DNA from: an uncultured Dehalococcoidia bacterium | GTDB lineage: Bacteria > Chloroflexota > Dehalococcoidia > SM23-28-2 | DNA length: 42,096 nucleotides | Reading direction: 5' to 3' | NCBI GenBank assembly: GCA_964354065.1 | Contig: CAYGYF010000001.1 | Span: forward strand, 1 to 42,096 | Part shown: piece by piece, positions 7,459 to 26,911 of the stretch | Layout of the letters: each line of letters begins with the position of its first letter | Numbering within the stretch: the stretch's first letter is position 1 | Notes under the pieces: model-generated | What the model was told of the DNA's origin: nothing | Seen by the model: only the letters and a program-made list of their open reading frames with translations | Database searches by the model: none | Made by a program: the position numbers and the translations under genes

Positions 7459-9684
7459 CTACTTCTCCTCCCAGGTGCCAGTAGCGTCCTTCGGCATGGC
7501 CGCACACTTCATCAGCCGATAGTCCCCGAAGTCATCGATCATGTGGAAGAGTACCCCGCCGTCTGGCGCGAGTTCCGCCCGGGCGGCGGTATTGGCCGAG
7601 TTAGGGAACGAGCCCGCGGGGTCGGTGTCGCACTCGACCAGCGCGACGAAGTCGATCTCGTGAGTGCCGCGGTTGATCTGCCCGACGCTCTGCTGCCAGC
7701 GGTAGACGCCAGCCACGTCGCGCAGCACCAGGACCAGGAAGATGCCGCCGGGGAGGGGCACGATCTCGATCTGGAGATCATAGACGTCGGTGGCGCCCGC
7801 GTACCGCGCCCCCCAGGTGCCCGAGGCGTCCTTCGGCATGGCATAACACTGGTGGATGTAGGCAGGAGTGAACCCCATGAAGTCCCACAGCCAGGCGAAC
7901 AGAACCGACCCGTCTGGCAGACGCCGCAGGGCTCCCGGCACATTGATCGCGTCCCCAGAGATCGCGAAGCCGCTGGCGATCGGCGGCGTCGTCCAATCGA
8001 ATACCTGGGTGCCTGCGTTCCATTGCCCTACCGCCTGATACCAGGCGTAGACGGCCGCGGGCTTAGCGAGCACCATCGCGAGGAGGAGACCGCCGGGCAA
8101 CGGCTGCAGCGCCACCTGATAGTATCCCCCCGCGGTCGCCGGGATAGTGCCGGCCGGGGTCCAGAGGTCGCGGGTCAGCAGACCGATCTCCACCGGGCCG
8201 GGGATCGTTTCCAGGACGCCGATCACCATGGCCGCGTCGCGTCGGCACATCCCGAGTGGCCCCTCCGCCGCCGGCGCGACCGCGCTCAGGTCGGGGTAGA
8301 AGTGCTGGCGTGTCCAGGCCCCGTCAAGGTCGATCAGATCGAGGGGCTGCGCCGGCACCGCGGATGGGACGGCGAGGAGCGCCACCTGCTCATCATCCGG
8401 CCGCACCGGCACCGCCCCGAGGGAGATTAGCGGGCCTACATAGTGAATGAAGATCACGTCGGTGTAGGGCGGGAGGAAGTCGCCGGAGCCGCTGGTGTGC
8501 GGGCCGGTGTTGCTCACCGTGGTGACGACGGAGTTGGTGCTCGCCCCCGAGAACGGGTGAGTATGGGTAGTCATGCCTACCCGCGTCGGGGGTCCGGCGT
8601 AGGTGTTGTAGATGAAGTTGACGCCGGTGAGCGAGCCGCTCGTGTGGGTATGGCCGGCCTGGGTATGCAGGTGCGCGGTCAGAACGTGAGTATGGGCCAC
8701 CCATCCTGGATCGACGGCGGTAGGCAGCGCGGTGCCAGCATCCGGTCCACCCAGGAGGAATGCTACATCGTTGAGGTTCGGCACCCCACCCGTCCCGTCG
8801 CACGCGCGCCAGTAGATCGGGATCGCGCCCGCTGCCCCGTCCCAAGCGACGATCAGGCCGCGCGGGATGCCCCCGCCGGCGCCCTGTTGCAGGCAATACT
8901 GCTGCCAGTTCCGCGGCCGGGCACTCTCTGATTCCGCGGCGTGCACATCCGCGCCTGACGTCTGGTTGCTGGTGGTCCAGACGAAGGTGTGCGTGTGCCA
9001 GTAGTCGGCGATCAGAGTCGCGCCGGCGAAGTCGGCCCATACCCCGGTAGTGGTGGTACTGTAGTTGGTGCTGCCGCCGGTGTGCCCATGGCTGAGGGTG
9101 TGGGTGTGGGTCTGGGTATGTACATGGCTCGCCGCCCCGCCCGTGGCTCCTCCGCCACCACCGGCCGCGGCCCCCTTGAGGTATCGGCCTTCCCCTGTCA
9201 CCGGCTGTGTCCAGCCCGACAGCAAGCGGCCACCCCATGCGAGCGCGCCCGCGGGGATCGGCGTCGAGCCATCCGCCTTGATCCAGATCACTAGCCAATA
9301 TGGAGGATTGCTAGCGGCCGCAGTGATGGTGTGCGCGACCGAGGTGCATGATTTGCTGGTAGGTACACCCGTCGAGCCGGTGATAGTGTGATCATGGGCG
9401 GAGTCATTGGCGCCGATGAAGTTCGCGGCAAGGTAGTAGTAAGTTTCGCAGTTCAGTGCCGCGTTGCCGTTCCCGACCGTGCCGCTCTGCGTGTGCGTAT
9501 GATCGGCCAATACGTGGTTGTGCGACTGCCCCGCATGGGTGTGTGTGGTCGCCCCTCCGGTCCCGCCCGCCACGGTGTTGCCGCGGAGGTACTTGCCGTC
9601 CAGCCCGGCCACCCGCGCCCATCCTGCCGAGATCGACGCCTCGGTATCGGGCCAGCCGACGATGATGCCAGCGGGGGCATTCAC
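7459..9684 (-). CDS. receptor-binding/tail fiber protein with three His-rich collar-like modules and a duplicated C-terminal domain (741 aa)
   Basis: Track ORF. Three modules of the type GIIVGW..ISAGW..GKYLRG..GGTGG..HTHxxxHxH. The C-terminus contains two copies of a roughly 115-aa unit ending C(Y/A)AMPKDA(S/T)GTW. Confidence 0.7.
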   Translation of the reverse strand: MNAPAGIIVGWPDTEASISAGWARVAGLDGKYLRGNTVAGGTGGATTHTHAGQSHNHVLADHTHTQSGTVGNGNAALNCETYYYLAANFIGANDSAHDHTITGSTGVPTSKSCTSVAHTITAAASNPPYWLVIWIKADGSTPIPAGALAWGGRLLSGWTQPVTGEGRYLKGAAAGGGGGATGGAASHVHTQTHTHTLSHGHTGGSTNYSTTTTGVWADFAGATLIADYWHTHTFVWTTSNQTSGADVHAAESESARPRNWQQYCLQQGAGGGIPRGLIVAWDGAAGAIPIYWRACDGTGGVPNLNDVAFLLGGPDAGTALPTAVDPGWVAHTHVLTAHLHTQAGHTHTSGSLTGVNFIYNTYAGPPTRVGMTTHTHPFSGASTNSVVTTVSNTGPHTSGSGDFLPPYTDVIFIHYVGPLISLGAVPVRPDDEQVALLAVPSAVPAQPLDLIDLDGAWTRQHFYPDLSAVAPAAEGPLGMCRRDAAMVIGVLETIPGPVEIGLLTRDLWTPAGTIPATAGGYYQVALQPLPGGLLLAMVLAKPAAVYAWYQAVGQWNAGTQVFDWTTPPIASGFAISGDAINVPGALRRLPDGSVLFAWLWDFMGFTPAYIHQCYAMPKDASGTWGARYAGATDVYDLQIEIVPLPGGIFLVLVLRDVAGVYRWQQSVGQINRGTHEIDFVALVECDTDPAGSFPNSANTAARAELAPDGGVLFHMIDDFGDYRLMKCAAMPKDATGTWEEK

Positions 9685-9911
9685 ACGCGCGCCTCAAACT
9701 CCACTACGGAATCGGTCCACTTGATCGGCCGGGCGGCGAGTAGATCGTCGCCGAGAATCTCCGCCGCGCGCCGCCAGGCCCCGGCCAGGTTGTCAGCCGA
9801 GACCACCAGGATCGTCTCGTTGATGTTGCCCTGCTTGCCACCTGACTCCGCCAGGTGCAGGCGAAAGGAGCACCGCTTCCGACCCCATATCCGACGCAGC
9901 AATCTACACAT
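9681..9911 (-). CDS. hypothetical protein (76 aa)
   Basis: Track ORF. AGGAGA lies 7 nt upstream of ATG 9911. Its stop overlaps the start of the next gene. Confidence 0.5.
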   Translation of the reverse strand: MCRLLRRIWGRKRCSFRLHLAESGGKQGNINETILVVSADNLAGAWRRAAEILGDDLLAARPIKWTDSVVEFEARV

Positions 9912-9939
9912 ATTGGCGATCTCCTGCTATGATGGAACC

Positions 9940-10383
9940 ATGAGAACTATGCGATGGGTTGCTCTGGCCGCACTCCTGGGACTGGCCGTCCTGTTCGTCG
10001 CGGACTTCACCGCGCCGGCGCGTGAGCGGCACCGACTGGCAGGAACGTATGACCTGATGGAGGCTCGGGTCGACTTCCGGGTGGAGCCGGCGACAGGGAT
10101 TGGGATAGGTGTCCATGTTCTCAGGCCGCCCGACACGCGAGGGCAATTCGTCATCGCCGCCGATGGCCACTGTCAACAGGCCATATCCACGGCCTCTGTC
10201 GGCAACGGCACGATCTCCCCCGGACGATACGAGGTCTTCCCGCGCGAAGGGCGGCTCCTGATGACAAACCCGGGACTCTCGGAACCCATCTCCGTGGCCT
10301 ATCGGCTGGACGGCGACACCCTCATCACCACCGTCGACGTGGGTGCCTATGCCGAACAGGACACCTGGGTTCGTCACCCCTAG
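9940..10383 (+). CDS. membrane-anchored or secreted lipocalin-like protein (moron, 147 aa)
   Basis: In-frame ATG 9940 of track ORF 9388..10383. MRTMRWVALAALLGLAVLFVA is a signal/anchor. GTYDLMEARV...GRYEVFPREGRLLMT...YRLDGDTLITT resembles the lipocalin-like beta-barrel pattern. It is the only plus-strand gene in the tail module. More A/T-ending codons than its neighbours. Confidence 0.65.
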   Translation: MRTMRWVALAALLGLAVLFVADFTAPARERHRLAGTYDLMEARVDFRVEPATGIGIGVHVLRPPDTRGQFVIAADGHCQQAISTASVGNGTISPGRYEVFPREGRLLMTNPGLSEPISVAYRLDGDTLITTVDVGAYAEQDTWVRHP

Positions 10384-13235
10384 CCTCCCTGGAAATCGTT
10401 CGCCGTCACCTCGCGATCCATCTGCTCGTCCCACCACTGATCGACGACCTCTTTCGCCCCGTCGGAGGCGATCTGCTTCATGTCCTCGCGGGAGTTGATC
10501 GAGTTCGCCCGTACCACGATGGTGAACTGGTGCCCCGGCCCGCCCTCGACGCGGAGGCGCCGGCTCTGTCCCTCGGGCAGGAAGGTCGGCTCCACATGGG
10601 AGAGCAGTGGCGGCTGATCCCAGAACCCCTTCGGTGTTGCCCCCGGCGCCTGCACGGTCGGGATCTCACCTGCGCCCATCCATCCGGGTAGGTCGCGCGA
10701 CGATGGCGACGGCCCGAGCCACGGCACCTTGCGGTAGCCGATCACGTTCCCGGCCGCGTCCCGTACCGGAGTGCCAGCCATGACACTCGGCGGCAGGGGT
10801 TCGGCGGGCGGGACCGGCGCGGCCCCGGCGAGGACCGGGACATTCCGCCCGAGCGCGGCCTGCGCGCCCGGGCCCGCGCCCGCGAGCTTGACGATCCGCT
10901 CCCAGGCCTTGTCCCGCTCCTGCATGGCCTGGGTGACCGCCTGGATGTTCTCGGGTGTGTCGGACTCCTGCATAGCGCGCCAGAGTTCCTCGACCGCGTC
11001 GCGCTCCTCCCAGTAGTAGGCCGCGTACTGGTCGAGTGCGGTGCCGATATCCCCCATCGCCTCGGCGAGCTGGGCGCGTGCGAGGGCGGGCGAGAGAACC
11101 GCACCGCCGACGCCGCCCGCTGCGCCACCTGCCCCTGCGCCAGCCCCGGCTGCACCAGCACCGCCAGCACCTACCGCCGAAGCGATCTTCTCGGCCGCGT
11201 CCATCTGCAGCCGGCCCGCCGCCTCCTGGGTGTCCGCCGCCTCCTGCGCGTCCTCGATCAGTGGGGCCATCGCGTAGCCGGTCATCTCATAGCCGCCGCC
11301 ACCACCCATCCCACCGACGCGGCCCGCGATATTCTCCCGCCAGCCGGCGAGTGCGCCCTGTCCGCCCTGCCAACCCTGGCCCCAGGCCGCGCCGAGCTTC
11401 GACCCGAACGAGTCCGGCTGCATCTGGCCGACGCGGAACCGCGCCCAGCCGAGTTCGGCCTTCTGCCCCCAATCCTCGATGTTCTGCCGCTCCCGCTTGA
11501 CCAGATCCCTGCCCACATCCTGGGCCCATTCGGCCCCGCCGTAACCTACCGCACCGCCGCCGACCGCCCCGATCGCCCCGCCCACTATCGCACCCGCCGG
11601 GCCGCCCGCGATGGCCCCTATCGTGCCACCCGCGATGGCCCCCCTGATAGCGCCGAGTGCGGCCGCGGCCCAGGGCAATTTGTCCGCGACCACCTTGAGC
11701 AGGGCCTCAATCTCCGTGAGCACCGAAGTGGCGATGGTCTGCCCGATGGCTATCATCGCCTGCATGACCTCGTGCGCCCAATCCCAGATCGCGCCCTTGG
11801 AATCGACCAGGAACTTGATCACATTGGCAAGTCCATAGATCGCTCCGGCCACCCAATCGGCCGCCGCACCGACCTTGTCGCTGACCCAATCCCAGATCTC
11901 GCCCCAGTTCTCCCCGAGCCAGTCGATGAAGGCGGCGACGACGCGCTGGGCATACTCAAGTGCGGCGCCGATCCCGGCGACGATGGCCTTGAACCGATCG
12001 GACTTCGCGATCTCTTCTAGGGTGGTGACGATGCGGTCAAGGCTCGCGGTGGTGCCCTCGATCAGAGTCTGGATTGTCGGCCCGAACGAGTCTGCGAAGG
12101 ATTGGCCAAGCGCGACCAGTCCGGGCTGTAAGCGCCCCATCGCGCCAGCCAACCCCTCTAAGGCGGCCTTCGCCGTATCCATGATGGGTTGCCCCAGCGC
12201 CGCCTTCAGCTGGAACCACGCGTCGGCGATGTTGCTCATGCGCGTCTTCCAGGTCGAGGCCATCTTCTCCATCATGCCGCCGTAACGCTCGATGACCAGA
12301 GCGACGGCGGCGGGAAAGAGCGCCTCGCGATTCTTGGCCTCTCCCGTCCCCGAGAATATCACCCCTTTCGATTCGAAGTCCTCCTTGGTGAGTTTCAAGG
12401 CCGAGACCACCTGCTCAGTCTCGAACATCCCCGCCTTGAGTTTGCCCAGGGTGTTGATTACCTCGGATAGTTGAGAACCCGTACCCGAGGCCGTATCGCC
12501 CACAATGGTCAGTGTCTCCTCGAGTCCACCGAGGTCAATGCGATAGGCCTTCAAGGCCATCTGCCCCTCGATGATCCCCTGCAGTTCAAAGGGCGTGGCC
12601 GCTGCGAACTCAACCATGCGGGCGAGTTGGTCCTGGGCCTCGGCAAGACTCCCGGTGAGCACAGTCAGCATCGCCTCATACCGCTCCATTTCCCCAGCCG
12701 CCGCCAGCGACTTCCCGGCGAGATAGGCCAATGCCGCAGCACCGACACCCCCGAGCACCAGGAATGCCTTGGAGAGCTTCTCGACTGCCTCCAGGGCCGT
12801 GCGCCCGAGCCATTCCAGAATCGCGAGGCCCGTTTGCGCGACCTTCTCGATGACAGACCCCAGCGCCGATAGGATTGACCCGAGGCCCGAGACACCGAGG
12901 GAAACGAAACCAGCGAGGGCACCCAGGGGAGAGGTCCAGACCGCGGTGAGCACGGTCCCGAGGCGCGCGAACACGTTGCCGAGCATCGACCCATGCCCCG
13001 CGACGGCCTGGAACGAGCCCTCCATTTTGCCGATGTGACCGGCCACGCCCTGGAGGTGAGACTGGAGGCGCGAGAAGGCAGTCTCGGTCCGCTTGCTGGA
13101 GTCCTCGGCCGCGTGAGTCAGGCGGTCGATCCTCGCGGTGATCGCGTCGAGCTGCGCGCCGAACTGCTTGAGCACGCCCTCGGCCCGGTTCTGCGCCTCG
13201 AGTATGACCTGCAGTTTCTCCTGCTCGATCGCCAT
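10380..13235 (-). CDS. tape measure protein (951 aa)
   Basis: Track ORF. Size, helical/coiled N-part, Gly-rich zipper segments (GGAIGAVGGGAVGYGG, AGAGAGAGGAAGG). Located directly after the chaperone pair. Confidence 0.85.
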   Translation of the reverse strand: MAIEQEKLQVILEAQNRAEGVLKQFGAQLDAITARIDRLTHAAEDSSKRTETAFSRLQSHLQGVAGHIGKMEGSFQAVAGHGSMLGNVFARLGTVLTAVWTSPLGALAGFVSLGVSGLGSILSALGSVIEKVAQTGLAILEWLGRTALEAVEKLSKAFLVLGGVGAAALAYLAGKSLAAAGEMERYEAMLTVLTGSLAEAQDQLARMVEFAAATPFELQGIIEGQMALKAYRIDLGGLEETLTIVGDTASGTGSQLSEVINTLGKLKAGMFETEQVVSALKLTKEDFESKGVIFSGTGEAKNREALFPAAVALVIERYGGMMEKMASTWKTRMSNIADAWFQLKAALGQPIMDTAKAALEGLAGAMGRLQPGLVALGQSFADSFGPTIQTLIEGTTASLDRIVTTLEEIAKSDRFKAIVAGIGAALEYAQRVVAAFIDWLGENWGEIWDWVSDKVGAAADWVAGAIYGLANVIKFLVDSKGAIWDWAHEVMQAMIAIGQTIATSVLTEIEALLKVVADKLPWAAAALGAIRGAIAGGTIGAIAGGPAGAIVGGAIGAVGGGAVGYGGAEWAQDVGRDLVKRERQNIEDWGQKAELGWARFRVGQMQPDSFGSKLGAAWGQGWQGGQGALAGWRENIAGRVGGMGGGGGYEMTGYAMAPLIEDAQEAADTQEAAGRLQMDAAEKIASAVGAGGAGAAGAGAGAGGAAGGVGGAVLSPALARAQLAEAMGDIGTALDQYAAYYWEERDAVEELWRAMQESDTPENIQAVTQAMQERDKAWERIVKLAGAGPGAQAALGRNVPVLAGAAPVPPAEPLPPSVMAGTPVRDAAGNVIGYRKVPWLGPSPSSRDLPGWMGAGEIPTVQAPGATPKGFWDQPPLLSHVEPTFLPEGQSRRLRVEGGPGHQFTIVVRANSINSREDMKQIASDGAKEVVDQWWDEQMDREVTANDFQGG

Positions 13236-14104: not shown

Positions 14105-14974
14105 CTATACGATGGTCAGATTCGTCGCCAGGTAGGGCACCCCGATCACGATGTTGCCGCGGTCGGGGATGTCGATGTTCTCGTCGGTGGGCTTCATCCC
14201 GACGAGGGTGATCACGGTCGGCCCCTGGGCAGGCGAGACATCGCTGCACGTGGCGATGGTGATCGTCCTGTCGCCGGAGGCGATCAGGCAGTCCTGCACG
14301 TCGAGAGCAGTGCTCCCCAGGCGATAGCGCACCTCTCCCGACACCTCCAGCGCGCCCTCGTCGAGATAGTCCCAGATCCGGTCGGGCGTACGGGTCCCGC
14401 CGACGCCGAGAATCACGTTGTCGATGGCCAGGTTGTTCCTCAGCGACACGTCGATCCCGTAGAGATCGAAGGCCGGCGACGCCTCGCTCCAGGCGAGGTT
14501 GTAGTCGCGGAACATCCTCGCGCCGAAGAATGCCATCGCGCCGGGATCGGCCGCGGTCTTCGTCACCGCCCCGCCGGTCAGCGTGGCCTCACCGGTTAGT
14601 CGGCCGCCCGCGTCGCACCGCAGCGTGAAGGTATCGATCTTGCAGTCGATGCCCACATACTGGAGGATCGACGCGCCCTTGGCGTAGCCCCACTTCACCG
14701 AGAGCCAGGGGAGTTCGCCGGTGACCAGGCTGCGCAGGGCCTGGTTGATGAAGGCCCAGTCCTCGATCCCGGCGATGGAGATCGGGACCTCGGCGCTCGT
14801 CCGGCCCTCGGAAAGTTCGACGGCGCTCCAGGTGCCCACCGAGTGGACTGCCTCGACGCCGCCGCGGATCCGCGGCCGGATGTTGGCGGGAGCGCCGAGC
14901 GGCAACCAGTTCACCGCCGCCACGCCCTTCGCTCCCTGCACGCCGTAGAAGGCGCGCCCATAGCTACCCTGCAT
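14105..14974 (-). CDS. major tail (tube) protein (289 aa)
   Basis: Track ORF. Position is immediately upstream of the chaperones and tape measure. Beta-rich composition. Confidence 0.65.
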   Translation of the reverse strand: MQGSYGRAFYGVQGAKGVAAVNWLPLGAPANIRPRIRGGVEAVHSVGTWSAVELSEGRTSAEVPISIAGIEDWAFINQALRSLVTGELPWLSVKWGYAKGASILQYVGIDCKIDTFTLRCDAGGRLTGEATLTGGAVTKTAADPGAMAFFGARMFRDYNLAWSEASPAFDLYGIDVSLRNNLAIDNVILGVGGTRTPDRIWDYLDEGALEVSGEVRYRLGSTALDVQDCLIASGDRTITIATCSDVSPAQGPTVITLVGMKPTDENIDIPDRGNIVIGVPYLATNLTIV

Positions 14975-15983
14975 AGTCGTTCACCTCGTCGGTAGATGTG
15001 TCCCGCGCCAGAAGCGCGAGGGTCGCCCTAACTGCCGCGGCGGCCTCCACCGCCCGCACACATCCGCCCGGAACGTCCTCCTCCCCGACGAGACAACTGC
15101 CCGACCAGCAGGGCCAGCACTGCAAACCTTCCGGCTCCAGTGCCACCACATCATAGCACGATCCGACTGAGCCTGCACTCCCCGTCGCGCAGAACACCGC
15201 CACCGCCGGCCGCCCTACCGCCTGCGCCAGGTGCATCGGGCCTGAGTCGCCGGACACGACCACGTCCGCGGCCGCGAGGAACGCAGCCAGTTGCCTCACA
15301 GTGAGGCCCTCGGGTGCCCGCGCGCAGCAGGGCAGCACCAGACCGTCAAAAGCAACCACTGCAGCCCCTGCGTCGGCGAGCCCCTTCGCGACGTGCGCCC
15401 AGGCGCGATAGGTGCGCGTGGGCCAACCGGCCCGCGAGAACAGGGCCACCACCGGCGCCCCGCCCTTCCGCCACTTGGCCAGAACCTCCCGGCCCCAGTC
15501 CCGCTCCTGCTCGGTCAGTTCGAGCCACGGCCGGGCGTCGAACTCATCGCCGAGATTCCAGTAGTCACCCATGCAGGCCGCCGCCGATCGCTCCTTACGG
15601 CCGGGATGGTGCTCCAGCCAGCCGTCGAACATCACCGCCTGGGCGCGCTCTCCGACAGGGCCGCCCATCGGGAGTCCATCGAATACCTGCAGGTACAGCG
15701 AGTGGCACGCCGGTTGCACCCGGCCGCCTCGTCGAACCACCTCCCGCAGGACTGCTGACATGCAGAGTACGTCCCCGAAGCCGGCGCGCCGGCGCACGAT
15801 CCACTCGCCCGGGCACAGTTCGTTCGGGCCGGGTCGGTAGGCCACACCTGCCCCAACCAGCTCCGCTGCCAGAGCTTCGTCGGCCATGACGGTGTCGCCG
15901 CGGCTGGCGTCGAAATCCACGCGGCCACCGCGCCCCATGTAGAAGCGCGGCCCGGTCGATCTCAATCTCTGCAGTCTCAGCAT
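14964..15983 (-). CDS. glycosyltransferase family 9 (heptosyltransferase-like)
   Basis: Track ORF. VVSGDSGPMHLAQAVGRPAVAVF matches the GT9 signature (G-D-S-G-x-x-H-L-A). A C-terminal Cys cluster CWPCWSGSC..GGC is also seen in heptosyltransferases. Its start overlaps the upstream stop and its end overlaps the tail-tube start. Confidence 0.7.
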   Translation of the reverse strand: MLRLQRLRSTGPRFYMGRGGRVDFDASRGDTVMADEALAAELVGAGVAYRPGPNELCPGEWIVRRRAGFGDVLCMSAVLREVVRRGGRVQPACHSLYLQVFDGLPMGGPVGERAQAVMFDGWLEHHPGRKERSAAACMGDYWNLGDEFDARPWLELTEQERDWGREVLAKWRKGGAPVVALFSRAGWPTRTYRAWAHVAKGLADAGAAVVAFDGLVLPCCARAPEGLTVRQLAAFLAAADVVVSGDSGPMHLAQAVGRPAVAVFCATGSAGSVGSCYDVVALEPEGLQCWPCWSGSCLVGEEDVPGGCVRAVEAAAAVRATLALLARDTSTDEVNDYAG

Positions 15984-16441
15984 GGTGCCGTGATCTCGTT
16001 CTTGGTGCCGAACACGATGGCCGTCGCGTCCACGTCCTCGTGCAGTCCGGCGATCAGTTGGCCAAGGCGCTCATCCTCGATGCGCTCCGGCTCGTCGCCG
16101 CCGTCGTAGGCGAATGTGGTGGCAGTCGGCAGCAGGTCCATCAGGGCCCCCATGCAGGCATCGGCCCAGGTATCCATCAGGGACGCGCGGGCGTCGAGGT
16201 CGTCGAACTGCCGCACGATCAGGACGGTCCACTTCCACGAGCCCATTTTCGCCCCCGCGATACCCAGGGGCTCGATCTTGAGGTCCGGCCCCAGGAGCGC
16301 GGCGAAGGGCAGCGGGGGCTGGTGGCGCAGGCGCCCGCGCGTCACGTGCGTGACGCCGAGCGGCACCAGTTCCGCGGCGAGCTGAGCCAGAATCTCTGCC
16401 GCCTGCGCGGCGCTGTTGATGCCCGTCGTCAGGATTGGCAT
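15977..16441 (-). CDS. neck/tail completion protein (154 aa), function inferred from position only
   Basis: Track ORF between the HK97 gp10-like gene and the tail tube region. Confidence 0.45.
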   Translation of the reverse strand: MPILTTGINSAAQAAEILAQLAAELVPLGVTHVTRGRLRHQPPLPFAALLGPDLKIEPLGIAGAKMGSWKWTVLIVRQFDDLDARASLMDTWADACMGALMDLLPTATTFAYDGGDEPERIEDERLGQLIAGLHEDVDATAIVFGTKNEITAPC

Positions 16442-16451
16442 GGATTCCCTC

Positions 16452-17054
16452 CTACGTCGGCGGGTCGAATCTCGCGACGACCTTCGCGAGTGCTCTCTGG
16501 AATCTGGGCAGGTTCCGATGAAAGGCCGGAACCAAGTAGGGCCGCGGAGAGATGCCCGGGTGGATGACGCTACGCACCACCACGTCGGCCGCCACTCTGC
16601 TCCGGTCCCATCCCCGCGCCGTCAGCCGCTTGCCCTTCATCGGCCGATAGAGATTGCGTCCCATCCTCGCCTGCCCGCTCGCCGTGATGCGGAACTCCTT
16701 GCCCACTGGACTCGCCCAGGCCAGCGCCCTCTTGAACCGCGGCTCGATCACGTACTTGGCGTGCCGCGGTCCCCAGAGGCCGGTGCCGTACTCCAGGTGC
16801 GGAGCGTAGGGCACGTTGGTGCCGATAGTCGCACTCACGTCAGCGCCGCTAGCGCGCAGCACCGTGTGGAGCGAGGACCGCAGGACGTTGGTCGAGACCG
16901 GGATGGCCATCTTCGCCTCGCGCTCGATGCGCAGGGCGTAGACCCCGACGAGGCCTACCAGCCGGGCGTGCATGCCGTTGCCGTTCTCGGCCATGCGCGC
17001 CGCCCACCGTTTAGCCTCGGTCGCATTCGTCAGTCGCGCGACTATCCCGATCAT
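16452..17054 (-). CDS. HK97 gp10-family head-tail joining protein
   Basis: ATG 17054 overlaps the upstream stop (ATGA). IPVSTNVLRSSLH...TNVPYAPHLEYGTG matches the gp10-family pattern (P-V-x-T-G-x-L-R-x-S ... Y-A-x-x-x-E-Y-G). Confidence 0.7.
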   Translation of the reverse strand: MIGIVARLTNATEAKRWAARMAENGNGMHARLVGLVGVYALRIEREAKMAIPVSTNVLRSSLHTVLRASGADVSATIGTNVPYAPHLEYGTGLWGPRHAKYVIEPRFKRALAWASPVGKEFRITASGQARMGRNLYRPMKGKRLTARGWDRSRVAADVVVRSVIHPGISPRPYLVPAFHRNLPRFQRALAKVVARFDPPT

Positions 17055-17422
17055 GGTTGCCACTTCCGCAGGCCGGATTCCATCACGTGTGCAGTGCCCG
17101 CGGCCGCCGGCGCCGGGTCCCACGGATTGAAGAACTTGCTCGGCCCGGCATGGACGCGATACGAGACGTTGGCGACCACCACCAGGTCAGTCTCCCGCAG
17201 GTCGGCCTCCTCGGTATACATCACCGCATCACTCTCGACCATCGCCCCCACCGCCGATTCCTGGAAGGCCTTGCCCGAGGTCACCAGCATGCAGGGCAGC
17301 GCGGCGATATCCGGGATCGCGGGATACGCCTCGAGCTGCTGCCCGTCGGCCTCGGTGGTTAGCGCCAGGTGCGATACCGCCGCTCTCTGCACCAGCATCG
17401 CCAGCAGGATAGGATCGCTCAT
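17051..17422 (-). CDS. head-tail adaptor/head closure-like protein (123 aa)
   Basis: ATG 17422 lies 1 nt after the upstream stop. The call rests on position and size within the connector block. Confidence 0.5.
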   Translation of the reverse strand: MSDPILLAMLVQRAAVSHLALTTEADGQQLEAYPAIPDIAALPCMLVTSGKAFQESAVGAMVESDAVMYTEEADLRETDLVVVANVSYRVHAGPSKFFNPWDPAPAAAGTAHVMESGLRKWQP

Positions 17423-17423: not shown

Positions 17424-18149
17424 TCACGCCTTCTGCCCCGGCACGCCAAGGAACGCCTTCGAGACCCAGGCCTTCTCCATCGCGTCCGCGCGGTTGAGCA
17501 TGGCCGTCACGATGCCGGCGAGGGAGGCCGAGTCCTTCGTGTAGGGGCCGAGGGTCAGGCGGCCGCCCGATGCCAGTATGGTCAGGCCCGAAGCGGTGGC
17601 CACAACTCCCAGGGCACAGAACTCCAGCGCTTCGACGAGAAGGTCCTCATCGCCCGCCGGCACGGTGCTCGCGTCCGGGTAGGGAAATGTCCAGAGCCAG
17701 GCGAGGGTATCGTTCGCGGCCGGCGGTGGAGTAAGGCGGACATTCTGGCCCGGCGAGTCCTGGACGAATGAGGCCCCGAATTGCCTCCCCCAGGCGTCGA
17801 GTTGCCCTCGGTAGATATCGACCTGCGAGGGCTGATGGAACTCGATGATCACGTCGCCGAGCTGCTGGATAGGGTACGCGGGCACGAATCCGAGCACAGA
17901 TGCCCAGAGGTCAAGCACATCATCCGAATAGGGCTGCACATCGAGGCAGATGTGGCCCGAGACGGCACCGCTGGTCGGCGGCGGATACTCCTCCTGTCCG
18001 GCGATGGCCGAGAAGGTCAGCAGGAGGATGCGCGGCCGCTGGCGGGAATACGCCTGCACCGCTCCCGCCGCGGCCGCGGTCAGTTGCGCGGCGCTCAGTC
18101 CGGTGATGCCCAACAGTGCCGCCTGCGCCTCGAGCTGTGCCTGGGTCAT
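17424..18149 (-). CDS. putative head-tail connector protein (241 aa)
   Basis: Track ORF. The N-terminus LLGITGLSAAQLTAAAAGAVQAYSRQ resembles gp6-like connector N-termini. ATGA overlap with the upstream gene. Confidence 0.45.
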   Translation of the reverse strand: MTQAQLEAQAALLGITGLSAAQLTAAAAGAVQAYSRQRPRILLLTFSAIAGQEEYPPPTSGAVSGHICLDVQPYSDDVLDLWASVLGFVPAYPIQQLGDVIIEFHQPSQVDIYRGQLDAWGRQFGASFVQDSPGQNVRLTPPPAANDTLAWLWTFPYPDASTVPAGDEDLLVEALEFCALGVVATASGLTILASGGRLTLGPYTKDSASLAGIVTAMLNRADAMEKAWVSKAFLGVPGQKA

Positions 18150-18434: not shown

Positions 18435-19430
18435 TTAGCTCCTCGGCAGCCCGATCAGGTCTCGCCAGGCCGCCTCCCACTGGTCGAGGTTGTTCCGCTC
18501 TACCGACCACCGGCGGGCCTCGGGCCCCATTAGGTCGCGCTGCTGCAGTGCCTCAGCGACGGCGTCGGCCCACTTCGCTGCCGGCGCGTCCGCACCGTCC
18601 GGCACGATCAGGCCCCATCCGTACAGGTCGAGCCGCACGGCCTTCGGGTAGGCGAACAGCCCGGCCGGGCTCACCACCATCGGCAGTCCGCAGGCCATCG
18701 CCTGCAACGCGGCATAGGAGTTGCCCTCCGCCCGCGACGCCGAGAGGAACACATCCCCCTGCGCCATGCGCGCGGCCTCGGATCCCGTCTCGCCGCCGAG
18801 CTGCCGGAACTCCACGTCGGGCAGTAGCCCCCGGAGCGCGGCCACCACATCGCCGCCTTTGCGCACACCCTCGGATGGATAGAGCACCAGCGGCCGCGTG
18901 CGCGGGGTCTTCTCGCGAGGCCGCGGGCGGAACTCATCGGTGTCAACCGCGTTCGGGATCACCGCCACCGCCTCGACGCCGTAGTGCTCGCGCAGTTCGA
19001 TGCGCGTCTTCTCGGAGACGGCTACCACCTTGCGGCGCGCGTACTCTGCCGCCTGGATCTCGCCAAGGCGCGCGGCGTGGGCGACGAAGGGCGGATCTGC
19101 CGCACTGTCCGCGGCGAATCCTCGCCATGTCCCATGCGCGACGGAGTAGACGTCATAGGGCGGAGCCGCCGGCAGTCCTCGACCCCAGAATCCGTCGACG
19201 ATCACGGCCTTGGCACCGGCCAAGGCGCCAGACTCATGGAGCCAGGCTGAGAGTTGCTCGGCCGCGTTGACCTCGGCCACGCCGCCACGGTATCCCTCCG
19301 GGTGACTCGACCAGGCCCAGACCGCCGCCCCGAGACGCTGGCGCGCGTACTCGCCGAACACGGGCACGCCGCCGCTGTGGAAGTCCGGCGCATCCCGCCG
19401 GAACCACGCAATATGATGGACCTTGCTCAC
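18435..19430 (-). CDS. glycosyltransferase, GT-B fold (GT4-like)
   Basis: GTG 19430 is preceded by GAGGAGG and overlaps the upstream stop (GTGA). SASRAEGNSYAALQAMACGLPMVVS corresponds to the GT4 E-x7-E region. AVIPNAVDTDEFRP is typical of this family. Confidence 0.7.
   Translation of the reverse strand: MSKVHHIAWFRRDAPDFHSGGVPVFGEYARQRLGAAVWAWSSHPEGYRGGVAEVNAAEQLSAWLHESGALAGAKAVIVDGFWGRGLPAAPPYDVYSVAHGTWRGFAADSAADPPFVAHAARLGEIQAAEYARRKVVAVSEKTRIELREHYGVEAVAVIPNAVDTDEFRPRPREKTPRTRPLVLYPSEGVRKGGDVVAALRGLLPDVEFRQLGGETGSEAARMAQGDVFLSASRAEGNSYAALQAMACGLPMVVSPAGLFAYPKAVRLDLYGWGLIVPDGADAPAAKWADAVAEALQQRDLMGPEARRWSVERNNLDQWEAAWRDLIGLPRS
19344..19412. repeat. 69-bp direct repeat, copy A (67/69 identical to 21361..21429)
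   Basis: Hand alignment gives two mismatches. Encodes IAWFRRDAPDFHSGGVPVFGEYAR at the N-terminus of the GT4 gene. Confidence 0.9.
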
Positions 19431-20038
19431 GACTTCCTCCTCGCCATCCAGCATTGATCGACGACCTCGACCGCCTCGTAGTCCCCGCCCTGCGCGAGTC
19501 CGTCGCATACCGATACCACTCCCGGATAGCCCTCCCGATAGTCATGCAGGCAGAGGTAGCCGCCCGGCAGCACCCAGGGAGCGAAAGCCCACACATCGCG
19601 TGACGCTCCCTCCTCGCTGTGGTCGGCATCGATGTGGAGGAGCGCCACCCCGCGATTCCAAGTCCTGGCCACGTCTCTGGAGTCGGCCTGCATCGAGTAG
19701 ATCATGCCCGGGTATCCGAGGGAGGCGATGTTGATCTCAAACCGCCGCAGGTCCTGACCCGAGTACCATGTGTCAACCGCCCAGATCGGCGGCACCTTGT
19801 CCGCATGCAGGAGCGCGTGCGCGATGAAGCACAGGCTCCTCCCCTGCAGCGAACCGATCTCCAGGATGGGACCGTCCGGTGCCTGCACCGCGCACTCGCC
19901 CAGTGCTAACCCCTCGGCGAGATCGTACTGGCCCCACACCGACCAGAGGTGCCACCAGGCGCGCTCGCCGAGGGGGAAGGCTTCAGCGAGGGACTGATAC
20001 TCTGCGGCCCGGTCGCCGTAGATGTGCTGGAGGCTCAT
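19427..20038 (-). CDS. class I SAM-dependent methyltransferase (Methyltransf_24/CmcI-like)
   Basis: ATG 20038 overlaps the upstream stop. ILEIGSLQGRS (motif I-like) and LLHIDADHSEEGASRDVWAFAPWVLPGGYLCLHD are typical of this O-methyltransferase group. Confidence 0.65.
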   Translation of the reverse strand: MSLQHIYGDRAAEYQSLAEAFPLGERAWWHLWSVWGQYDLAEGLALGECAVQAPDGPILEIGSLQGRSLCFIAHALLHADKVPPIWAVDTWYSGQDLRRFEINIASLGYPGMIYSMQADSRDVARTWNRGVALLHIDADHSEEGASRDVWAFAPWVLPGGYLCLHDYREGYPGVVSVCDGLAQGGDYEAVEVVDQCWMARRKS

Positions 20039-20862
20039 AACGCGCACTCCTCGGGTTGCCCATCCGCGGTGAAGGTCGGCAGGCCGCGCGCAGTCGCTTC
20101 CTCCGCTCGCATGAACCACCAGGGCATCCCGCCACCATTCGCGACGATCACCCAGCCGGCCTGCTCGAGGACCGGCAGCAGGCTGTCGGTGTAGACGTGA
20201 ACCGGATTCCCGTCATCCTTCGGCCGCCCAGTCACCCCGGAGCTGCAGATCGCGATGCGTGCCCGGTCGAGGAGTTGCCGCAGGACCGCCGGCGCGTTGG
20301 CGATGTGCTCGAGGACCTCCAGGCAGAGTACCGCGTCCCAAGTCTCGCTGCTCTCCAGCACCGCCTCCGGGTCCCTGGGCCGGTGGGTGTTCAGGTCGAG
20401 TCGACCGCCCAACCGCCAGCACAGGAACTCCCGCGCATCGCCAGGCAGGTCGCAGTAGGTCACCGGCACGTCGAGTTGGGCCGCCAGGTGCAGGCCGATC
20501 TCGCCGACGCCGCTGCCGAAGTCGAGCACTGATCGCACCTGCAGGCGCTCGCACATCTCCCGCACCGACTCGGGCCATCCGTATTCCCACTCGCAGAGCG
20601 CCCAGTTCAGCCAGTTCCAGACCGAGTCCTGGCCCGAGGAGGCGCCCAGGGCGAAGAGCAGCGCCCCTCGCGTCACGCCGAAGAACTGCTGGGCCTCGAG
20701 GCGGAGCTGGGCCATCCGGTCCCGGGTGCAGGCCGACGTCCACTGCGAGGGACCGGCCCCGGCTGCGCTGGTGGCGGCCAGTGGCTCGCATCCGCCCTGG
20801 GGCTGGTCTACCCCGCCGGGCTCCTCCTGATCGCGCTGCCGCAGGAAGGTGTCCGTCGTCAT
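20035..20862 (-). CDS. class I SAM-dependent methyltransferase
   Basis: Track ORF. VLDFGSGVGEIG (motif I) and WDAVLCLEVLEHI (motif post-II/III). Confidence 0.7.
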   Translation of the reverse strand: MTTDTFLRQRDQEEPGGVDQPQGGCEPLAATSAAGAGPSQWTSACTRDRMAQLRLEAQQFFGVTRGALLFALGASSGQDSVWNWLNWALCEWEYGWPESVREMCERLQVRSVLDFGSGVGEIGLHLAAQLDVPVTYCDLPGDAREFLCWRLGGRLDLNTHRPRDPEAVLESSETWDAVLCLEVLEHIANAPAVLRQLLDRARIAICSSGVTGRPKDDGNPVHVYTDSLLPVLEQAGWVIVANGGGMPWWFMRAEEATARGLPTFTADGQPEECAL

Positions 20863-21116: not shown

Positions 21117-21516
21117 CCCCATGCTTCGCCGCGGCACTCCGCGCGAGTTCCGCCCCCACATCGAGGCCCAACCGAAGATCGGCGATGGCCGCGAGAGCCC
21201 GTTCCCGCTTACCTCTGGGGCCCAGGTCTGGAATCGCGACCGTCCACCCCTTGCGTTCGATGGTCCCCGATGCGCCCACGCAGTCCAGTTGTACACTGAA
21301 GCCTACCACCATGGTCGGCTCACCATTGACAGTCACCGAAGACCCCTCGAGGCGCAGCCTCGCGTATTCGCCGAACACCGGCACGCCGCCGCTGTGGAAG
21401 TCCGGCGCATCCCGCCGGAACCACGCAATGTAGCCCCTGTCTATCACGATATAGATCCGCGTCGCATCCGGGTTGAACCGCCCGGAAGGTTCCGCCCCGC
21501 CGTTCGTCTCTCCCAT
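21094..21516 (-). CDS. hypothetical protein (140 aa) sharing a 24-aa segment with the GT4 N-terminus
   Basis: ATG 21516 overlaps the upstream stop by 1 nt. MGETNGGAEPSGRF...IAWFRRDAPDFHSGGVPVFGEYAR is identical to the start of the 18435..19430 product, after which the two diverge. Confidence 0.55.
   Translation of the reverse strand: MGETNGGAEPSGRFNPDATRIYIVIDRGYIAWFRRDAPDFHSGGVPVFGEYARLRLEGSSVTVNGEPTMVVGFSVQLDCVGASGTIERKGWTVAIPDLGPRGKRERALAAIADLRLGLDVGAELARSAAAKHGDDKDAQA
21361..21429. repeat. 69-bp direct repeat, copy B
   Basis: See copy A at 19344..19412. Confidence 0.9.
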
Positions 21517-23642
21517 CAGTCGCTGCCTCCTTGCTGTGCCGCCTGCCATCGTGCCAGCCTCCCTCTGAATACCTGCTCGTCGTGGTCCCAGGCCGCCTTC
21601 GTCCCCTCCGGCCGCCGCCCGCCGCCCGCCACGAAGTGCCAACCCACCGCGCCCGTGTCTACGAGGAGGCGATGCCCGCCCAGCAGGTGCAGTCGGATCG
21701 ACGCGTCTGACTCCTCCCGCTGCCCGAACCGCGAGTAGCAATCCGCGAATCCGCCCGGCTCTCCCGGTAGGTGGGCCTCCTCCAGGTAGCGACTCCGGTA
21801 CATCCACGTCGAGTACAGGTGCTCGCACTCGACCACCTCGCCGGCGCCGCGCCACCAGCGCATCTGCAGCGGAGCCGCTCCCACCAGCATCTCGGCGATG
21901 CGGTTGTCCATGCCGCGCTTGCCGCGGTGGGCGGCATAGTCCAGTTCCTGCGCATTCCACTCCGGGTAACTGCCGCCCACTGCACCCACGTCGGCGGCCC
22001 GGTTGATCAGCCGATAGAGGCGCTCGCTGAAGTCGGCCGTGGCCGGCAACACATCATCGTCGATGCGCAGCACCAGGTCCGTACCCAACCACCGCCGCGC
22101 TATCTCGTGGTTCTGCGATGCACCCTTGCCTGAGCCCGCCACCACCTCGGCGCGAATCCCACGGTGTTTCATCAGCGCCACGAGGTGCGCGATGGCCGGG
22201 TTCTGCGCCAGGCCGCCGCCGTCATCCACGATGCAGACGGCTTGCGGCAGTCTCGTTTGGCAGAGGAGCGCGCCGAGGAGGGCCGCGAGATAGCCAGGTC
22301 GGTCCCGCGTGGGGATGCCTACCCCGAGGGTCTCATCGGCCGTGATAGGGGAGGGGGGAGGTACTGCCGGCGAGGAGGTGACGGCCGCCGGGCGGGGGTG
22401 ACCGTCGTCGTTCGACAGCACCTCGACCCCCACGTCCAAACCCAACACACCCGCGAACCCGCGCGCCATGCGCGCGTAGGAGAACCGCTGCCGGAGGCCG
22501 TTGGCCTCGGCGACCTGGTGGGCCTCACGCCGCGGCTCCTCGACCATACGGCGCATCCATACCACGATCTCGTCCACGTTGGCATCGGCCCAGTGAGGTT
22601 CCTCGCCGGGGCCCCACCAGTGCGGATTCGCCTCGTTCCGGGAGAGGGTGTAGCCGAATAGGGTCGCATTCTCGGGCGTGGTATAGTCGAGTTGGCCCGA
22701 CCAACCGGTGGTGCCCAACCGACACCCGCAGGCGAGCGCCTCCAGTCCGGTCAGTCCGAACCCCTCGCAGCGTGACGGCATGATGTAAGCGCCGTGCTGC
22801 GCCGCGCGCCGGTAGGTCGCAGCGATCTGGGCTGGCTCCCAGGTGTCGTAGACGTAGGTGAGTTCAGGGGCCTTGTCCCCGAGGCGCTTCCGCCAGGCCG
22901 CGACCTGCTCCTGGCACCACCCTTTGCGGCCCCAACCGTAGTCGTAATCCTTGAGCACCAGCGTCACGGGATCGTCACGGTCAAAGGCCTTGCCATAGGC
23001 CTCCAGCGCCAGGTCGAACCCCTTGCGCGGATTCTGCGCGCCGAGGGAGAGGAAGACAAACCGATTGCCGGCGAGGTCCGCGACCGGGCCCTCGGGCCGG
23101 TAGAGGTCGGTGTCGATGCAGTGGTTGACCACATGGCAGCGTTCCGGCGCGATCCCCGATCGCACCAGCGCGTCCCGGATCGCCTGCGAGCCGCAGATGA
23201 TCCCGTCCCACGCGCGCAGGAGCGCGATGTGCGAGGCCGGGAACATGTCCGCGTCCGGGTGCGGCCACGCGAAACGCCCCGCGGGTCCCTCGAATGTGGC
23301 GCTGTTGCACAGGTAACTCTGGCCGGTCTGGGCCTGGTCTGTCGCGCGCCAGGGGAACCGGTCGACTCGCACGCCCAGGGTGCGCAACGCACGCGATAGG
23401 CCTTCGGTCAGCAGGCAGAGTGAGTGCCCGCAGGCCGGCTTGCACAAGGTGTCGCCATGCCCGCGGGAGATGCCTCGGTAGAACGCGATGGACTTCGCGG
23501 TATCGAGTTCGGCCACCACCGCCACGTCGGGCCAACCCGCGGCGATCTCCAGAGGGACCCTCGCCGTCCCGCCCGGCTCGATCACGTAGATGCCATGGAG
23601 TTGTTTGATTCGCGTCGTGTTCTGCACCAGCACATCGGCCAC
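21516..23642 (-). CDS. two-domain glycosyltransferase: N-terminal GT-B (GT4-like) fused to C-terminal GT-A (GT2-like)
   Basis: GT-B signature: PSRCEGFGLTGLEALACGCRL. GT-A signature: GVGIPTRDRPGYLAALLGALLCQT, IVDDGG, RIDDDV (DxD). The start is ambiguous: GTG 23642 has GAGGAG 6 nt upstream, and ATG 23681 is the alternative. Confidence 0.75.
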   Translation of the reverse strand: MADVLVQNTTRIKQLHGIYVIEPGGTARVPLEIAAGWPDVAVVAELDTAKSIAFYRGISRGHGDTLCKPACGHSLCLLTEGLSRALRTLGVRVDRFPWRATDQAQTGQSYLCNSATFEGPAGRFAWPHPDADMFPASHIALLRAWDGIICGSQAIRDALVRSGIAPERCHVVNHCIDTDLYRPEGPVADLAGNRFVFLSLGAQNPRKGFDLALEAYGKAFDRDDPVTLVLKDYDYGWGRKGWCQEQVAAWRKRLGDKAPELTYVYDTWEPAQIAATYRRAAQHGAYIMPSRCEGFGLTGLEALACGCRLGTTGWSGQLDYTTPENATLFGYTLSRNEANPHWWGPGEEPHWADANVDEIVVWMRRMVEEPRREAHQVAEANGLRQRFSYARMARGFAGVLGLDVGVEVLSNDDGHPRPAAVTSSPAVPPPSPITADETLGVGIPTRDRPGYLAALLGALLCQTRLPQAVCIVDDGGGLAQNPAIAHLVALMKHRGIRAEVVAGSGKGASQNHEIARRWLGTDLVLRIDDDVLPATADFSERLYRLINRAADVGAVGGSYPEWNAQELDYAAHRGKRGMDNRIAEMLVGAAPLQMRWWRGAGEVVECEHLYSTWMYRSRYLEEAHLPGEPGGFADCYSRFGQREESDASIRLHLLGGHRLLVDTGAVGWHFVAGGGRRPEGTKAAWDHDEQVFRGRLARWQAAQQGGSD

Positions 23643-23707
23643 TGCCCGCTCCTCGCCCCGCAGGATGGGGCGGCGCACCATCCAGGCTACGCCGCCCCGA
23701 CAGTCGC

Positions 23708-26700: not shown

Positions 26701-26911
26701 CGGTCGGAGACTCCCACAGGCGGAGCTTCCACTCGGAGGGTTTGTCGGGGTCTGGCGCGTAGGCATAGGCCTCCCGCGGGTATGACTCCCCGCCCTCCGT
26801 TTTGGTCGCCTCCATCGTCGGCGCGGCCTGCTCCATCAGCGCCAGGAGCCGATCGCCTTCGGCGTCCCTCGCCTCCCGTAGGCGAGCCTTGACCTTCTCT
26901 GTTCTCGTCAT
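23708..26911 (-). CDS. head polyprotein: N-terminal domain + T4 gp21-like prohead protease + scaffold-like linker + major capsid protein (1067 aa)
   Basis: Internal ATG 26911 of track ORF 23708..27199; the upstream part is R/G junk. KNGRVYTQKL, LGEQDHP and VQVSSRTFA line up with the gp21 motifs NKRLYPK, LGELNHP and GVSSRGLG. A long acidic/helical linker follows. The C-terminus has ARELCSVQPMNRSTGIVHFLNF, typical of HK97-fold/gp23-like capsid proteins. Confidence 0.75.
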   Translation of the reverse strand: MTRTEKVKARLREARDAEGDRLLALMEQAAPTMEATKTEGGESYPREAYAYAPDPDKPSEWKLRLWESPTAKVTVAQLGRAAAAFSPGGFRGQKVQLPADAVAGAKAKIRAAYKRLKVKDTDIPASIKEAFRLGDSFTEYLPVDGDAEPLLEAWVTISGTYEATIADLRKAVRDNAALFGADEEHAYCSVEGTRPGQVVVSGRNDSLYSAVWARGDDGAIVLSNVQPVTVSLRAGDQTIPTGSPAATPPPTPDVPASTGRALGMETELVETFRADLRDGLRVVTETTDDRGDPVMTVECRLTPVGTPTKNGRVYTQKLADQLVAESTAQTERARRWLGEQDHPADGYPRLASTVTTPWRNLHVAEGWLRGETTIIPTAAGLDVQKQIRYGVPVQVSSRTFATTKRDVRDGKTVEVVDETSALEHWGGWDFVLGAGADGAGVTSFSERVSPAADPTRVEDDAQGEIIDEVLEQMTLAEFEAKTRELITAGLKPVMETLAGKVNGDGKPAEGDPAAADAAVATETKPVVAAAPTGDVLAKVEETMARVNTFISEQEAEKKAGVTTAVLTETRKAIMERPEIAAWNEPARKFLDLRLSEVTDPVQIAPTLEQTQRHLTEMGMIVINGQPTGRGLSPVHDALSREGVTKERAKLFQLGQLRDADKPRDIQEAIDLLTEGLPDNGLRSSSDPEDPIVAYMGRNLPFPGYHPGNEKHQFRVIAENMLRLDRGVYFRPHLHPDMRARMEWTGVAAVAQTVPYILPIIRQVWARLIARELCSVQPMNRSTGIVHFLNFLYDPSLGDPAIPGQFQSEYAQHISEQSPMREVKLTLSHSDITMDTKKLRAEWSTEVRQNILADFGLNIASEMVNFMADEIAREVNALLLNVMRTAADPAGIITAGNINYGTAMPLLGYTNHTEWERKLYQFILRGDGLIRATRRARANWVVAGQNALIRLMSLQSWVATTGDPEARDWEVGLNLIGTIQGSPTLKVYGCDADFFPTDLLLLGRKGPEWPDAGTIFCPFIPLYVTTPFVADGTFCESESAMSRFGYAKVVGNCYATVTTQPGVVGVDW

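Follow-up and report, generated by a model that had tools for sequence, protein, structure and literature searches.

The complete metagenomic contig CAYGYF010000001.1 (42,096 bp, analyzed here over its whole length and called the window in what follows) is the DNA of a tailed phage with nearly all of its genes on the minus strand. Within its tail module, directly upstream of the tail-tube gene, lies a gene for a glycosyltransferase of the GT9 family that is probably an active enzyme. The reading that we favor, and hold tentatively, makes this enzyme the tail-linked component of a set that glycosylates the virion, with heptose as the probable sugar and the tail tube as the first candidate acceptor. 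The GT9 gene and its two immediate neighbors are the following:

14964-15983, minus strand: GT9-family glycosyltransferase gene, 339 amino acids, ATG start, member of a phage-specific clade; called from the open reading frame (ORF), Pfam, an AlphaFold2 (AF2) model and homologues.
14105-14974, minus strand: tail-tube (major tail) gene, 289 amino acids, tandem-domain; Pfam Phage_tube_2 at E=1.1e-8.
15977-16441, minus strand: conserved 154-residue protein (p154), tail-terminator-like by gene order only.

The limits of the GT9 gene can be read directly from the DNA, and the overlaps with the upstream stop and with the tube start that an initial annotation of this sequence had pointed out are both there. 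The ATG (15983-15981) overlaps the TGA stop (15979-15977) of the p154 gene, which ends ...CCATGCTGA, over 7 nt (ATGCTGA, 15977-15983), while the TAG stop (14966-14964) lies inside the tube gene, whose ATG at 14974 is preceded by a Shine-Dalgarno-like GAGGTG; this second overlap amounts to 11 nt. The same annotation had recognized in this ORF a sequence signature and a C-terminal CxxC..C cluster, and the coordinates and both motifs are confirmed: VVSGDSGPMHLAQAVGRPAV occupies residues 242-261 of the 339-residue protein and the cysteines are arranged as C289-x2-C292-x4-C297-x10-C308. The ORF is more than a product of chance, because the Pfam family PF01075 (Glyco_transf_9) matches it at E=2.6e-11 (43.8 bits against a gathering cutoff of 22, in a local alignment of residues 227-267 only), because about 14 homologues of 48-62% identity conserve it over its full length, including the first 58 residues, because its frame has a coding-type GC distribution over the codon positions (GC1/2/3 of 0.74/0.55/0.80 in surrounding sequence of 68% GC), and because its AF2 model is a confident one (mean pLDDT 90.0, pTM 0.89, from an input alignment of 32 sequences).

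The proposed membership in the GT9 family is borne out by the Pfam hidden Markov model (HMM) and by the fold alike, and we regard it as practically certain. The top 30 Foldseek matches of the model in the PDB are exclusively GT9 structures (TM 0.46-0.62), and its two-lobe GT-B fold is closest to the following solved GT9 structures (TMq is the TM-score normalized to the query):

3TOV, a Veillonella GT9 protein: E=6.7e-12, TMq 0.58-0.61.
1PSW, WaaF: TMq 0.50.
4RAP and 4RB4, TibC: TMq 0.55-0.62.
2H1H, 2H1F, 2GT1 and 6DFE, WaaC: TMq 0.46-0.52.

Alignment to these enzymes locates three elements of the active site:

15771-15776, minus strand: G70-D71, equivalent of the catalytic base (D13 of HepI/WaaC, D110 of TibC).
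15414-15416, minus strand: R190, in the column of the GT9 K/R-x-W motif, equivalent of HepI K192.
15231-15251, minus strand: G-D-S-G-P-M-H (residues 245-251), nucleotide-sugar binding motif, from alignments to WaaF and WaaC.

The HMM alignment sets lvrrraglGDvl (R-R-R-A-G-x-G-D, ending on D71) opposite LIVKTSSMGDVL of WaaC, and the position of D71 is nearly invariant in a wider alignment that includes cellular GT9 proteins. R190 is invariant in the phage clade, the same column being occupied by K or R in the cellular proteins. The G-D-S-G-P-M-H motif is likewise invariant in the clade alignment; D246 corresponds to D261 and H251 to H266 of HepI, with D-S-G-P-M-H standing opposite D261-T-G-L-S-H266 of WaaC. 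The equivalents of D13, K192 and D261 of HepI are therefore all kept, and in HepI, for which the role of D13 has been described, mutants of these three residues have an activity that is ~900- to 4700-fold lower (PMC5713226). Since D71, R190 and D246 are invariant across the clade, we take the phage protein to be, in all likelihood, an active enzyme.

In two regions the protein has an architecture of its own:

15810-15983, minus strand: N-terminal extra domain, residues 1-58, four beta strands and one helix, clade-specific.
15060-15119, minus strand: Cys4 knuckle C289/C292/C297/C308, putative metal site, invariant in the clade.

In the model, DSSP assigns the N-terminal domain strands at residues 4-9, 14-17, 20-23 and 31-35 and a helix at 36-44 (pLDDT 91-98). 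These 58 residues are conserved in the clade alignment, while cellular GT9 proteins align only from about residue 60, the clade profile matching them over positions ~60-325. Behind this domain the N-lobe is reduced to ~87 residues (~59-145) with three DSSP strands (59-64, 87-92 and 115-118), and an L-P-C-C segment that is invariant in the clade stands where the cellular proteins have a C-lobe helix. The Cys4 knuckle falls in a region of low model confidence (pLDDT 57-61). Calling such a cluster characteristic of GT9, as the initial annotation did, calls for a caveat: the motif is conserved in most of the cellular GT9 sequences that we retrieved, a set biased by the way in which it was collected, but it is not universal, 3TOV having no cysteines at that position. 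Four more cysteines are invariant in the clade, C74, C137, C219 and C220 (in G-D-V-L-C, A-A-x-C and L-P-C-C), and these could make up another metal site or be paired in disulfides.

When 1.84 billion representatives were searched exhaustively with the clade profile, 14,043 GT9 relatives scored at E<=1e-3 but no more than 7 clusters at E<=1e-30. Among 185,579 species genomes there was no close homologue and no prophage copy; the best matches in them, from Desulfovibrionaceae, Planctomycetota, Armatimonadota and others, are 33-37% identical and cover the C-lobe only (residues ~125-335, mostly from ~149; tblastn). A metagenome scan added only two further members. As far as the sampled sequences go, the clade is small and confined to phage-like contigs.

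Protein look-ups and locus scans recovered ten GT9-carrying lineages: that of the window, the L001 group, L005, L096, L100/L101/L189 (one phage), L188, L190, L191, L192 and L193. Their GT9 proteins are 40-62% identical to that of the window, on contigs whose GC content is 60-72%. In 10/10 lineages the next gene downstream is a tube gene of one and the same family, and the GT9 gene is, as the initial annotation had already held, no lysogenic-conversion moron. Seven of the lineages have an overlap of 4-20 nt between the two genes, the other three a gap of 11-143 nt. An overlap does not imply stoichiometry, and three of the ten lineages have such gaps in its place, so that stoichiometric expression of the enzyme with the structural proteins is not supported. 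The order p154, GT9, tube is constant even where the content of the glycosylation cassette varies from one lineage to another, and it is kept in L096, where no homologue of the window's capsid protein can be detected. A homologue of the window's 357-residue GT4 accompanies the gene in all seven of the GT9-carrying lineages that have enough sequence upstream.

One relative provides the reverse situation. In L102/L194 (IMG/VR UViG_3300033149_004108; GC 55.5%) the gp10-like, p154, tube and tape measure genes are homologous to those of the window, and p154 (45% identity) and the tube (46%) are separated by a spacer of 19 nt with no GT9 gene between them; the capsid gene is of the lambda-E type, and the first 19.5 kb of the contig contain no homologue of the GT4, GT2 or methyltransferase genes. 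This phage is both a case of mosaicism between head and tail modules and a natural control without the enzyme. Its tail module does without GT9, which is therefore an accessory gene of the module and, on this small sample, one that travels with other sugar enzymes.

In the window itself these other enzymes, several phage glycosyltransferases clustered with methyltransferases, occupy 18.4-23.7 kb, the GT9 gene standing apart at 15-16 kb. The minus-strand gene order runs from a T4-type portal and a 1163-residue capsid-domain protein through a GT4-GT2 fusion, two methyltransferases dependent on S-adenosylmethionine (SAM) and a GT4 to an adaptor-like protein, a DUF3599 protein, an HK97-gp10-like protein, p154, GT9, the tube, chaperone-like genes and the tape measure:

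23708-27199, minus strand: 1163-residue protein with a T4 gp23-type capsid domain at residues 901-1149; upstream boundary of the glycosylation cassette.
21516-23714, minus strand: GT4-GT2 fusion glycosyltransferase, 732 residues.
20035-20862, minus strand: SAM-dependent methyltransferase, Methyltransf_23/12.
19427-20119, minus strand: SAM-dependent methyltransferase, Methyltransf_24.
18435-19508, minus strand: GT4 glycosyltransferase by Pfam GT4 families, start codon uncertain.
17424-18149, minus strand: 241-residue adaptor-like protein, whose homologues match SU10_adaptor.
17051-17422, minus strand: DUF3599/head-tail adaptor-like protein.
16452-17054, minus strand: HK97 gp10-like tail-completion/Neck1 protein (PF04883 weak, PHROG 5 at 1.6e-9); gene call transferred from the relative L008.
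10380-13235, minus strand: tape measure protein, in the downstream part of the tail module.

The tube is identified as such because of its Phage_tube_2 match and because its AF2 model (pLDDT 75) matches tandem-domain major tail proteins, the best in the PDB being 8xan (phage SH-Ab15497), 8ed0 (P74-26) and T5 pb6; p154 has no match in Pfam, PHROGs or the PDB sequences. On the minus strand, from ~23.06 kb down to 9.5 kb, there is neither a sigma-70-like promoter nor an intrinsic-terminator-like site, which is consistent with one late transcript; the earlier placement of the GT9 gene among the late structural genes thus holds, the gene lying inside an operon that has no internal sites of either kind.

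The cassettes show a number of further traits. In the window the two methyltransferase genes and a 145-residue ORF stand between the copies of an 85-nt direct repeat (19328-19412 and 21345-21429, 92% identity, 2017 bp apart). The GT4 gene has one of these copies as its 5' part (peptide IAWFRRDAPDFHSGGVPVFGEYAR), while the second copy is an orphan upstream of the block; the repeat looks like the scar of an insertion or recombination that brought the methyltransferases in. In contigs L003 and L004 (2620-4035) the genes of the GT4-GT2 fusion and of a 323-residue protein are set apart by an inserted gene for an N6/N4 DNA methyltransferase, which is missing from the otherwise near-identical L001 and L002. 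In L192 a sugar epimerase/dehydratase of the NAD-dependent SDR type (positions 1-580) heads the cassette of methyltransferase and GT4, which implies that this phage makes a modified sugar; as an ADP-heptose epimerase the SDR protein was rejected (18.6 bits against a cutoff of 274.6). The 1163-residue protein has homologues of 999-1045 residues (L001, L002 and L004) that also match Peptidase_S77, a prohead protease family, and it may be a fusion of protease, scaffold and capsid.

How does the phage enzyme relate to the two characterized GT9 subfamilies, the LPS (lipopolysaccharide) heptosyltransferases and the TibC/AAH group? With WaaC/HepI and WaaF/HepII (PDB 2H1H and 1PSW) it shares the GT-B fold, the PF01075 domain, the G-D base, the basic residue of K/R-x-W and the motif D-[ST]-G-x-x-H, and WaaF and WaaC are its best sequence matches in the PDB, the similarity being local only. 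However, the LPS enzymes have a full-size N-terminal Rossmann lobe in place of the ~87-residue lobe behind an added beta domain, and the phage gene sits in a tail operon, as it does in the nine other lineages, and not in a waa core-oligosaccharide cluster. Orthology to HepI, HepII or HepIII was rejected (27-30 bits against equivalog cutoffs of 134.6-185.3 for TIGR02193, TIGR02195 and TIGR02201), and so was orthology to RfaC, RfaF or RfaQ (20-22 bits against PRK model cutoffs of 437-569).

TibC and AAH are the GT9 relatives that O-heptosylate proteins (PMC4358343), so the precedent invoked in the initial annotation is a real one. TibC is distinguished by an iron finger, a beta-barrel domain in residues 1-97 and an N-lobe reduced to four strands, and it binds its sugar through R286, W305, T226 and K230 (PMC4358343). 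It further has a beta-hairpin thumb and forms a dodecameric ring. The phage model resembles it as closely as any GT9 structure (TMq as listed above). The phage protein, too, has beta strands in an additional domain at its N-terminus and an N-lobe of reduced size, and a weak alignment puts its Cys4 knuckle where TibC has the iron finger (CWPCW against CYGCW); with these three features the modeled architecture weakly recalls the protein-modifying branch. The Cys4 motif is, however, widespread among the cellular GT9 sequences that we retrieved, which argues against membership in that branch. The genes are also laid out in a similar manner, tibC lying directly upstream of its substrate gene tibA with an overlap of 8 nt. 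The differences are these: the N-terminal domain has 58 residues instead of 97, the loops of the knuckle are much shorter, the TibC positions W305 and K230 are H251 and R190 in the phage protein, P-S-G is D-S-G, and the acceptor of TibC is a beta-helical autotransporter, as opposed to a putative tube acceptor. Membership in the TibC/AAH (BAHT) family, the proposal that the phage enzyme is of the TibC type, was therefore rejected: there is no TIGR04414 match at E<=0.01 (P0001, P0004 and P0033), and the donor motif is the D-S-G-x-x-H of WaaC/WaaF rather than the P-S-G-x-x-W of TibC. The phage enzyme would work in the manner of GT9 enzymes at large and cannot be filed under either subfamily. Nor is it close to the GT9-like proteins predicted in other uncultured phages in the BFVD collection (A0A6J7WHE7 "RfaF", A0A6J5SVC1 "Aah/TibC", A0A6J5PAN8 and others), which have the same GT9-like fold but are only 12-19% identical to it.

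In the reading that we favor, the GT9 gene would be transcribed late within the structural operon and, in most lineages, its translation would be coupled to that of the downstream tube gene. The enzyme would act with the operon's GT4-GT2 fusion, its two SAM-dependent methyltransferases and its GT4 to glycosylate the virion, adding a sugar to a virion protein or to a glycan built on one. That sugar would probably be heptose from the host's ADP-heptose pool, and the tail tube would be the most likely acceptor because its adjacency to the GT9 gene is constant. We place different weight on the different parts of this proposal. That the enzyme acts on the virion or on a virion glycan seems slightly more probable than its contrary; ADP-heptose has about an even chance of being the donor, the donor motif being shared with GT9 enzymes although no residue pattern that we examined separates heptose from other sugars; and the tube, taken on its own, is a possible but doubtful acceptor. 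Any benefit that the phage might draw from the enzyme is a presumed one.

A close parallel comes from the mycobacteriophages, whose capsid and tail-tube subunits receive glycans from phage-encoded glycosyltransferases that work with O-methyltransferases (Freeman et al. 2023, Cell Host Microbe 31:1216, as cited in PMC11600133 and PMC12619734). As these citing papers present them, phages such as Che8 and Corndog (cluster O) have, like the window, tandem phage glycosyltransferase genes beside genes of the O-methyltransferase type. The parallel has its limits: in the papers searched we found no mention of a GT9 enzyme in these systems, the window's cassette lies between the capsid and connector genes with GT9 wedged between the terminator-like and tube genes, and the window phage has no detectable relative among the GenBank phage records.

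A number of observations weigh against the proposed virion glycosylation, or at least against one of its parts. To the missing TIGR04414 match and the donor motif of the WaaC/WaaF type must be added the weakness of the hhalign comparison between the clade profile and the tibC product of E. coli H10407 (probability 6.4%, E=0.006); this weak alignment places C289, C292 and C308 on C339, C342 and C370 of TibC, three of the four ligands of the iron finger. The tube of the window has no C-terminal extension, unlike the glycosylated ends reported for mycobacteriophages. When the tubes of the carriers are compared with that of the one non-carrier, no carrier-specific Ser/Thr or extension appears; the proteins are collinear, and each Ser/Thr conserved in the carriers is also a Ser/Thr in the non-carrier. 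This comparison with a single control neither supports nor excludes the tube as acceptor. Only one lineage lacks GT9, which makes the co-occurrence statistics thin as well. Finally, Pfam scans of the large ORFs of the window revealed no gene of the ADP-heptose pathway. A further-reaching form of the proposal, that the clade is a virus-encoded protein O-heptosyltransferase that decorates the tube or another tail protein as it is made, using host ADP-heptose, with the other glycosyltransferases and the methyltransferases elaborating the glycan, strikes us as rather unlikely.

The first alternative is a variant of the favored reading and is inseparable from it here: the GT9 enzyme would belong to the virion-glycosylation set but would act on the capsid, the fibers or the neck proteins, or else extend or cap a glycan started by the GT4 and GT2 enzymes, and its place beside the tube gene would be no more than a tolerated point of insertion. 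The co-occurrence with GT4 in 7/7 lineages and the tube proteins' lack of any enzyme-specific signature are in its favor, as is the general experience that boundaries between structural genes are common sites for the insertion of accessory genes. Against it, the tube remains the neighbor of the GT9 gene in lineages with other head modules and other cassette contents, and the order of enzyme before substrate has a precedent in tibC-tibA. We consider this variant unlikely, without dismissing it.

A second possibility is that the enzyme modifies the LPS core or another envelope glycolipid of the host late in infection, for example so that progeny or competing phages would no longer adsorb to infected cells and debris. 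The biochemically characterized GT9 enzymes, TibC/AAH excepted, all act on the LPS inner core (PMC5713226), and the phage protein has both the D-S-G-x-x-H donor motif and its best sequence matches in common with WaaF and WaaC. Nevertheless, its scores against the HepI, HepII and HepIII equivalog models, 20-37 bits, are far below the cutoffs of 135-569, and the N-lobe, which in HepI binds the lipid A-core, is here a lobe of ~87 residues with three strands and a foreign beta domain in front of it. Moreover, the gene is fixed beside the tube in 10/10 lineages, in the structural operon and not in an early or lysogeny module; there is no integrase among the scanned ORFs, and an enzyme made so late would probably have little time to remodel the outer membrane. 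Improbable is the word that we would choose for this host-directed role.

A pseudo-enzyme with the GT9 fold as its scaffold could also be imagined: the protein would then help to build the tail or be a part of its structure, for instance as a chaperone of the tube or as one of the minor components of the virion. Its gene does lie between a putative terminator and the tube genes, and non-enzymatic GT9 folds exist, the chloroplast NDH subunits 9grx_1 and 7wff_a being among the Foldseek matches. Yet the catalytic base, the basic residue and D-S-G-x-x-H are invariant across the clade, and the related tail module of L102 functions without the gene, so that such a role appears very improbable. Least credible of all is the glycosylation of modified bases in the phage DNA, as in the T4 beta-GT-like hypermodification, for although 5-hydroxymethylcytosine is known to receive heptose and other sugars from phage glycosyltransferases (bioRxiv 10.1101/2023.12.21.572611) and the other end of the window has an N6/N4 DNA methylase, a glutamine amidotransferase-domain protein, DUF4326 and DUF5131, the scanned ORFs include no C5-methyltransferase, 5mYOX/TET or thymidylate-synthase-like hydroxymethylase, the GT9 gene is in the tail module ~19 kb from the genes of DNA metabolism, and the fold matches GT9 and not T4 beta-GT.

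The group of genes at that other end of the window consists of a class-II glutamine amidotransferase-domain protein on the plus strand, near DUF4326/DUF488, DUF5131 and N6/N4 DNA methylase genes, and may be a DNA-modification or nucleotide-metabolism module:

35680-36744 (plus strand), 39012-39413 (minus strand), 39509-40369 (minus strand) and 34461-35741 (minus strand): coordinates of this group.

Between the tape measure and the distal tail genes there is a 144-residue ORF (9949-10383, plus strand) with an N-terminal signal or transmembrane segment, MRTMRWVALAALLGLAVLF. Its strand is opposite to that of all the structural genes, and the only sigma-70-like promoter match in 9.5-28 kb (9905-9933, plus strand) is located just upstream of it; this ORF looks like a moron. 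A 741-residue distal tail protein (7459-9684, minus strand) has no Pfam match and many H-x-H-x-H/HTHT motifs, which are reminiscent of metal-binding fiber or collar repeats. The segment 4001-5000 stands out by its GC content (58.6% against 64-73% elsewhere), with ORFs on both strands that have no Pfam matches. The window contains no tRNA genes, and its portal is only 23-27% identical to T4-like portals. In 50,697 GenBank phage records we found neither relatives of the window (tblastn with GT9 and tube, megablast with 14 kb) nor a match to the phage GT9 and two other GT9 queries (tblastn).

Experimental evidence for the glycosylation of phage particles comes mainly from the mycobacteriophages, where it blunts antibody recognition. 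Virion glycosylation and predicted GT9-like phage proteins were already known; in the literature searched we found no report that links a GT9 enzyme to the structural operon of a phage or to the virion. The locus is a clean and conserved case: at least ten uncultured phages, divergent among themselves, have a sugar enzyme hard-wired to the gene of their tail tube. Should the enzyme act on the host LPS, it would represent an unusual, late-expressed function of envelope remodeling. If, on the other hand, it heptosylates a virion protein, then protein heptosylation would extend beyond bacterial adhesins, the ADP-heptose metabolism of the host would shape the chemistry of the phage particle, and a compact GT9 enzyme of 339 residues with a protein acceptor would be available for glyco-engineering. 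And if the O-heptosyltransferase reading were true, the phage would offer the first case of protein heptosylation apart from the autotransporter/BAHT pair, and also the first virus particle decorated with heptose.

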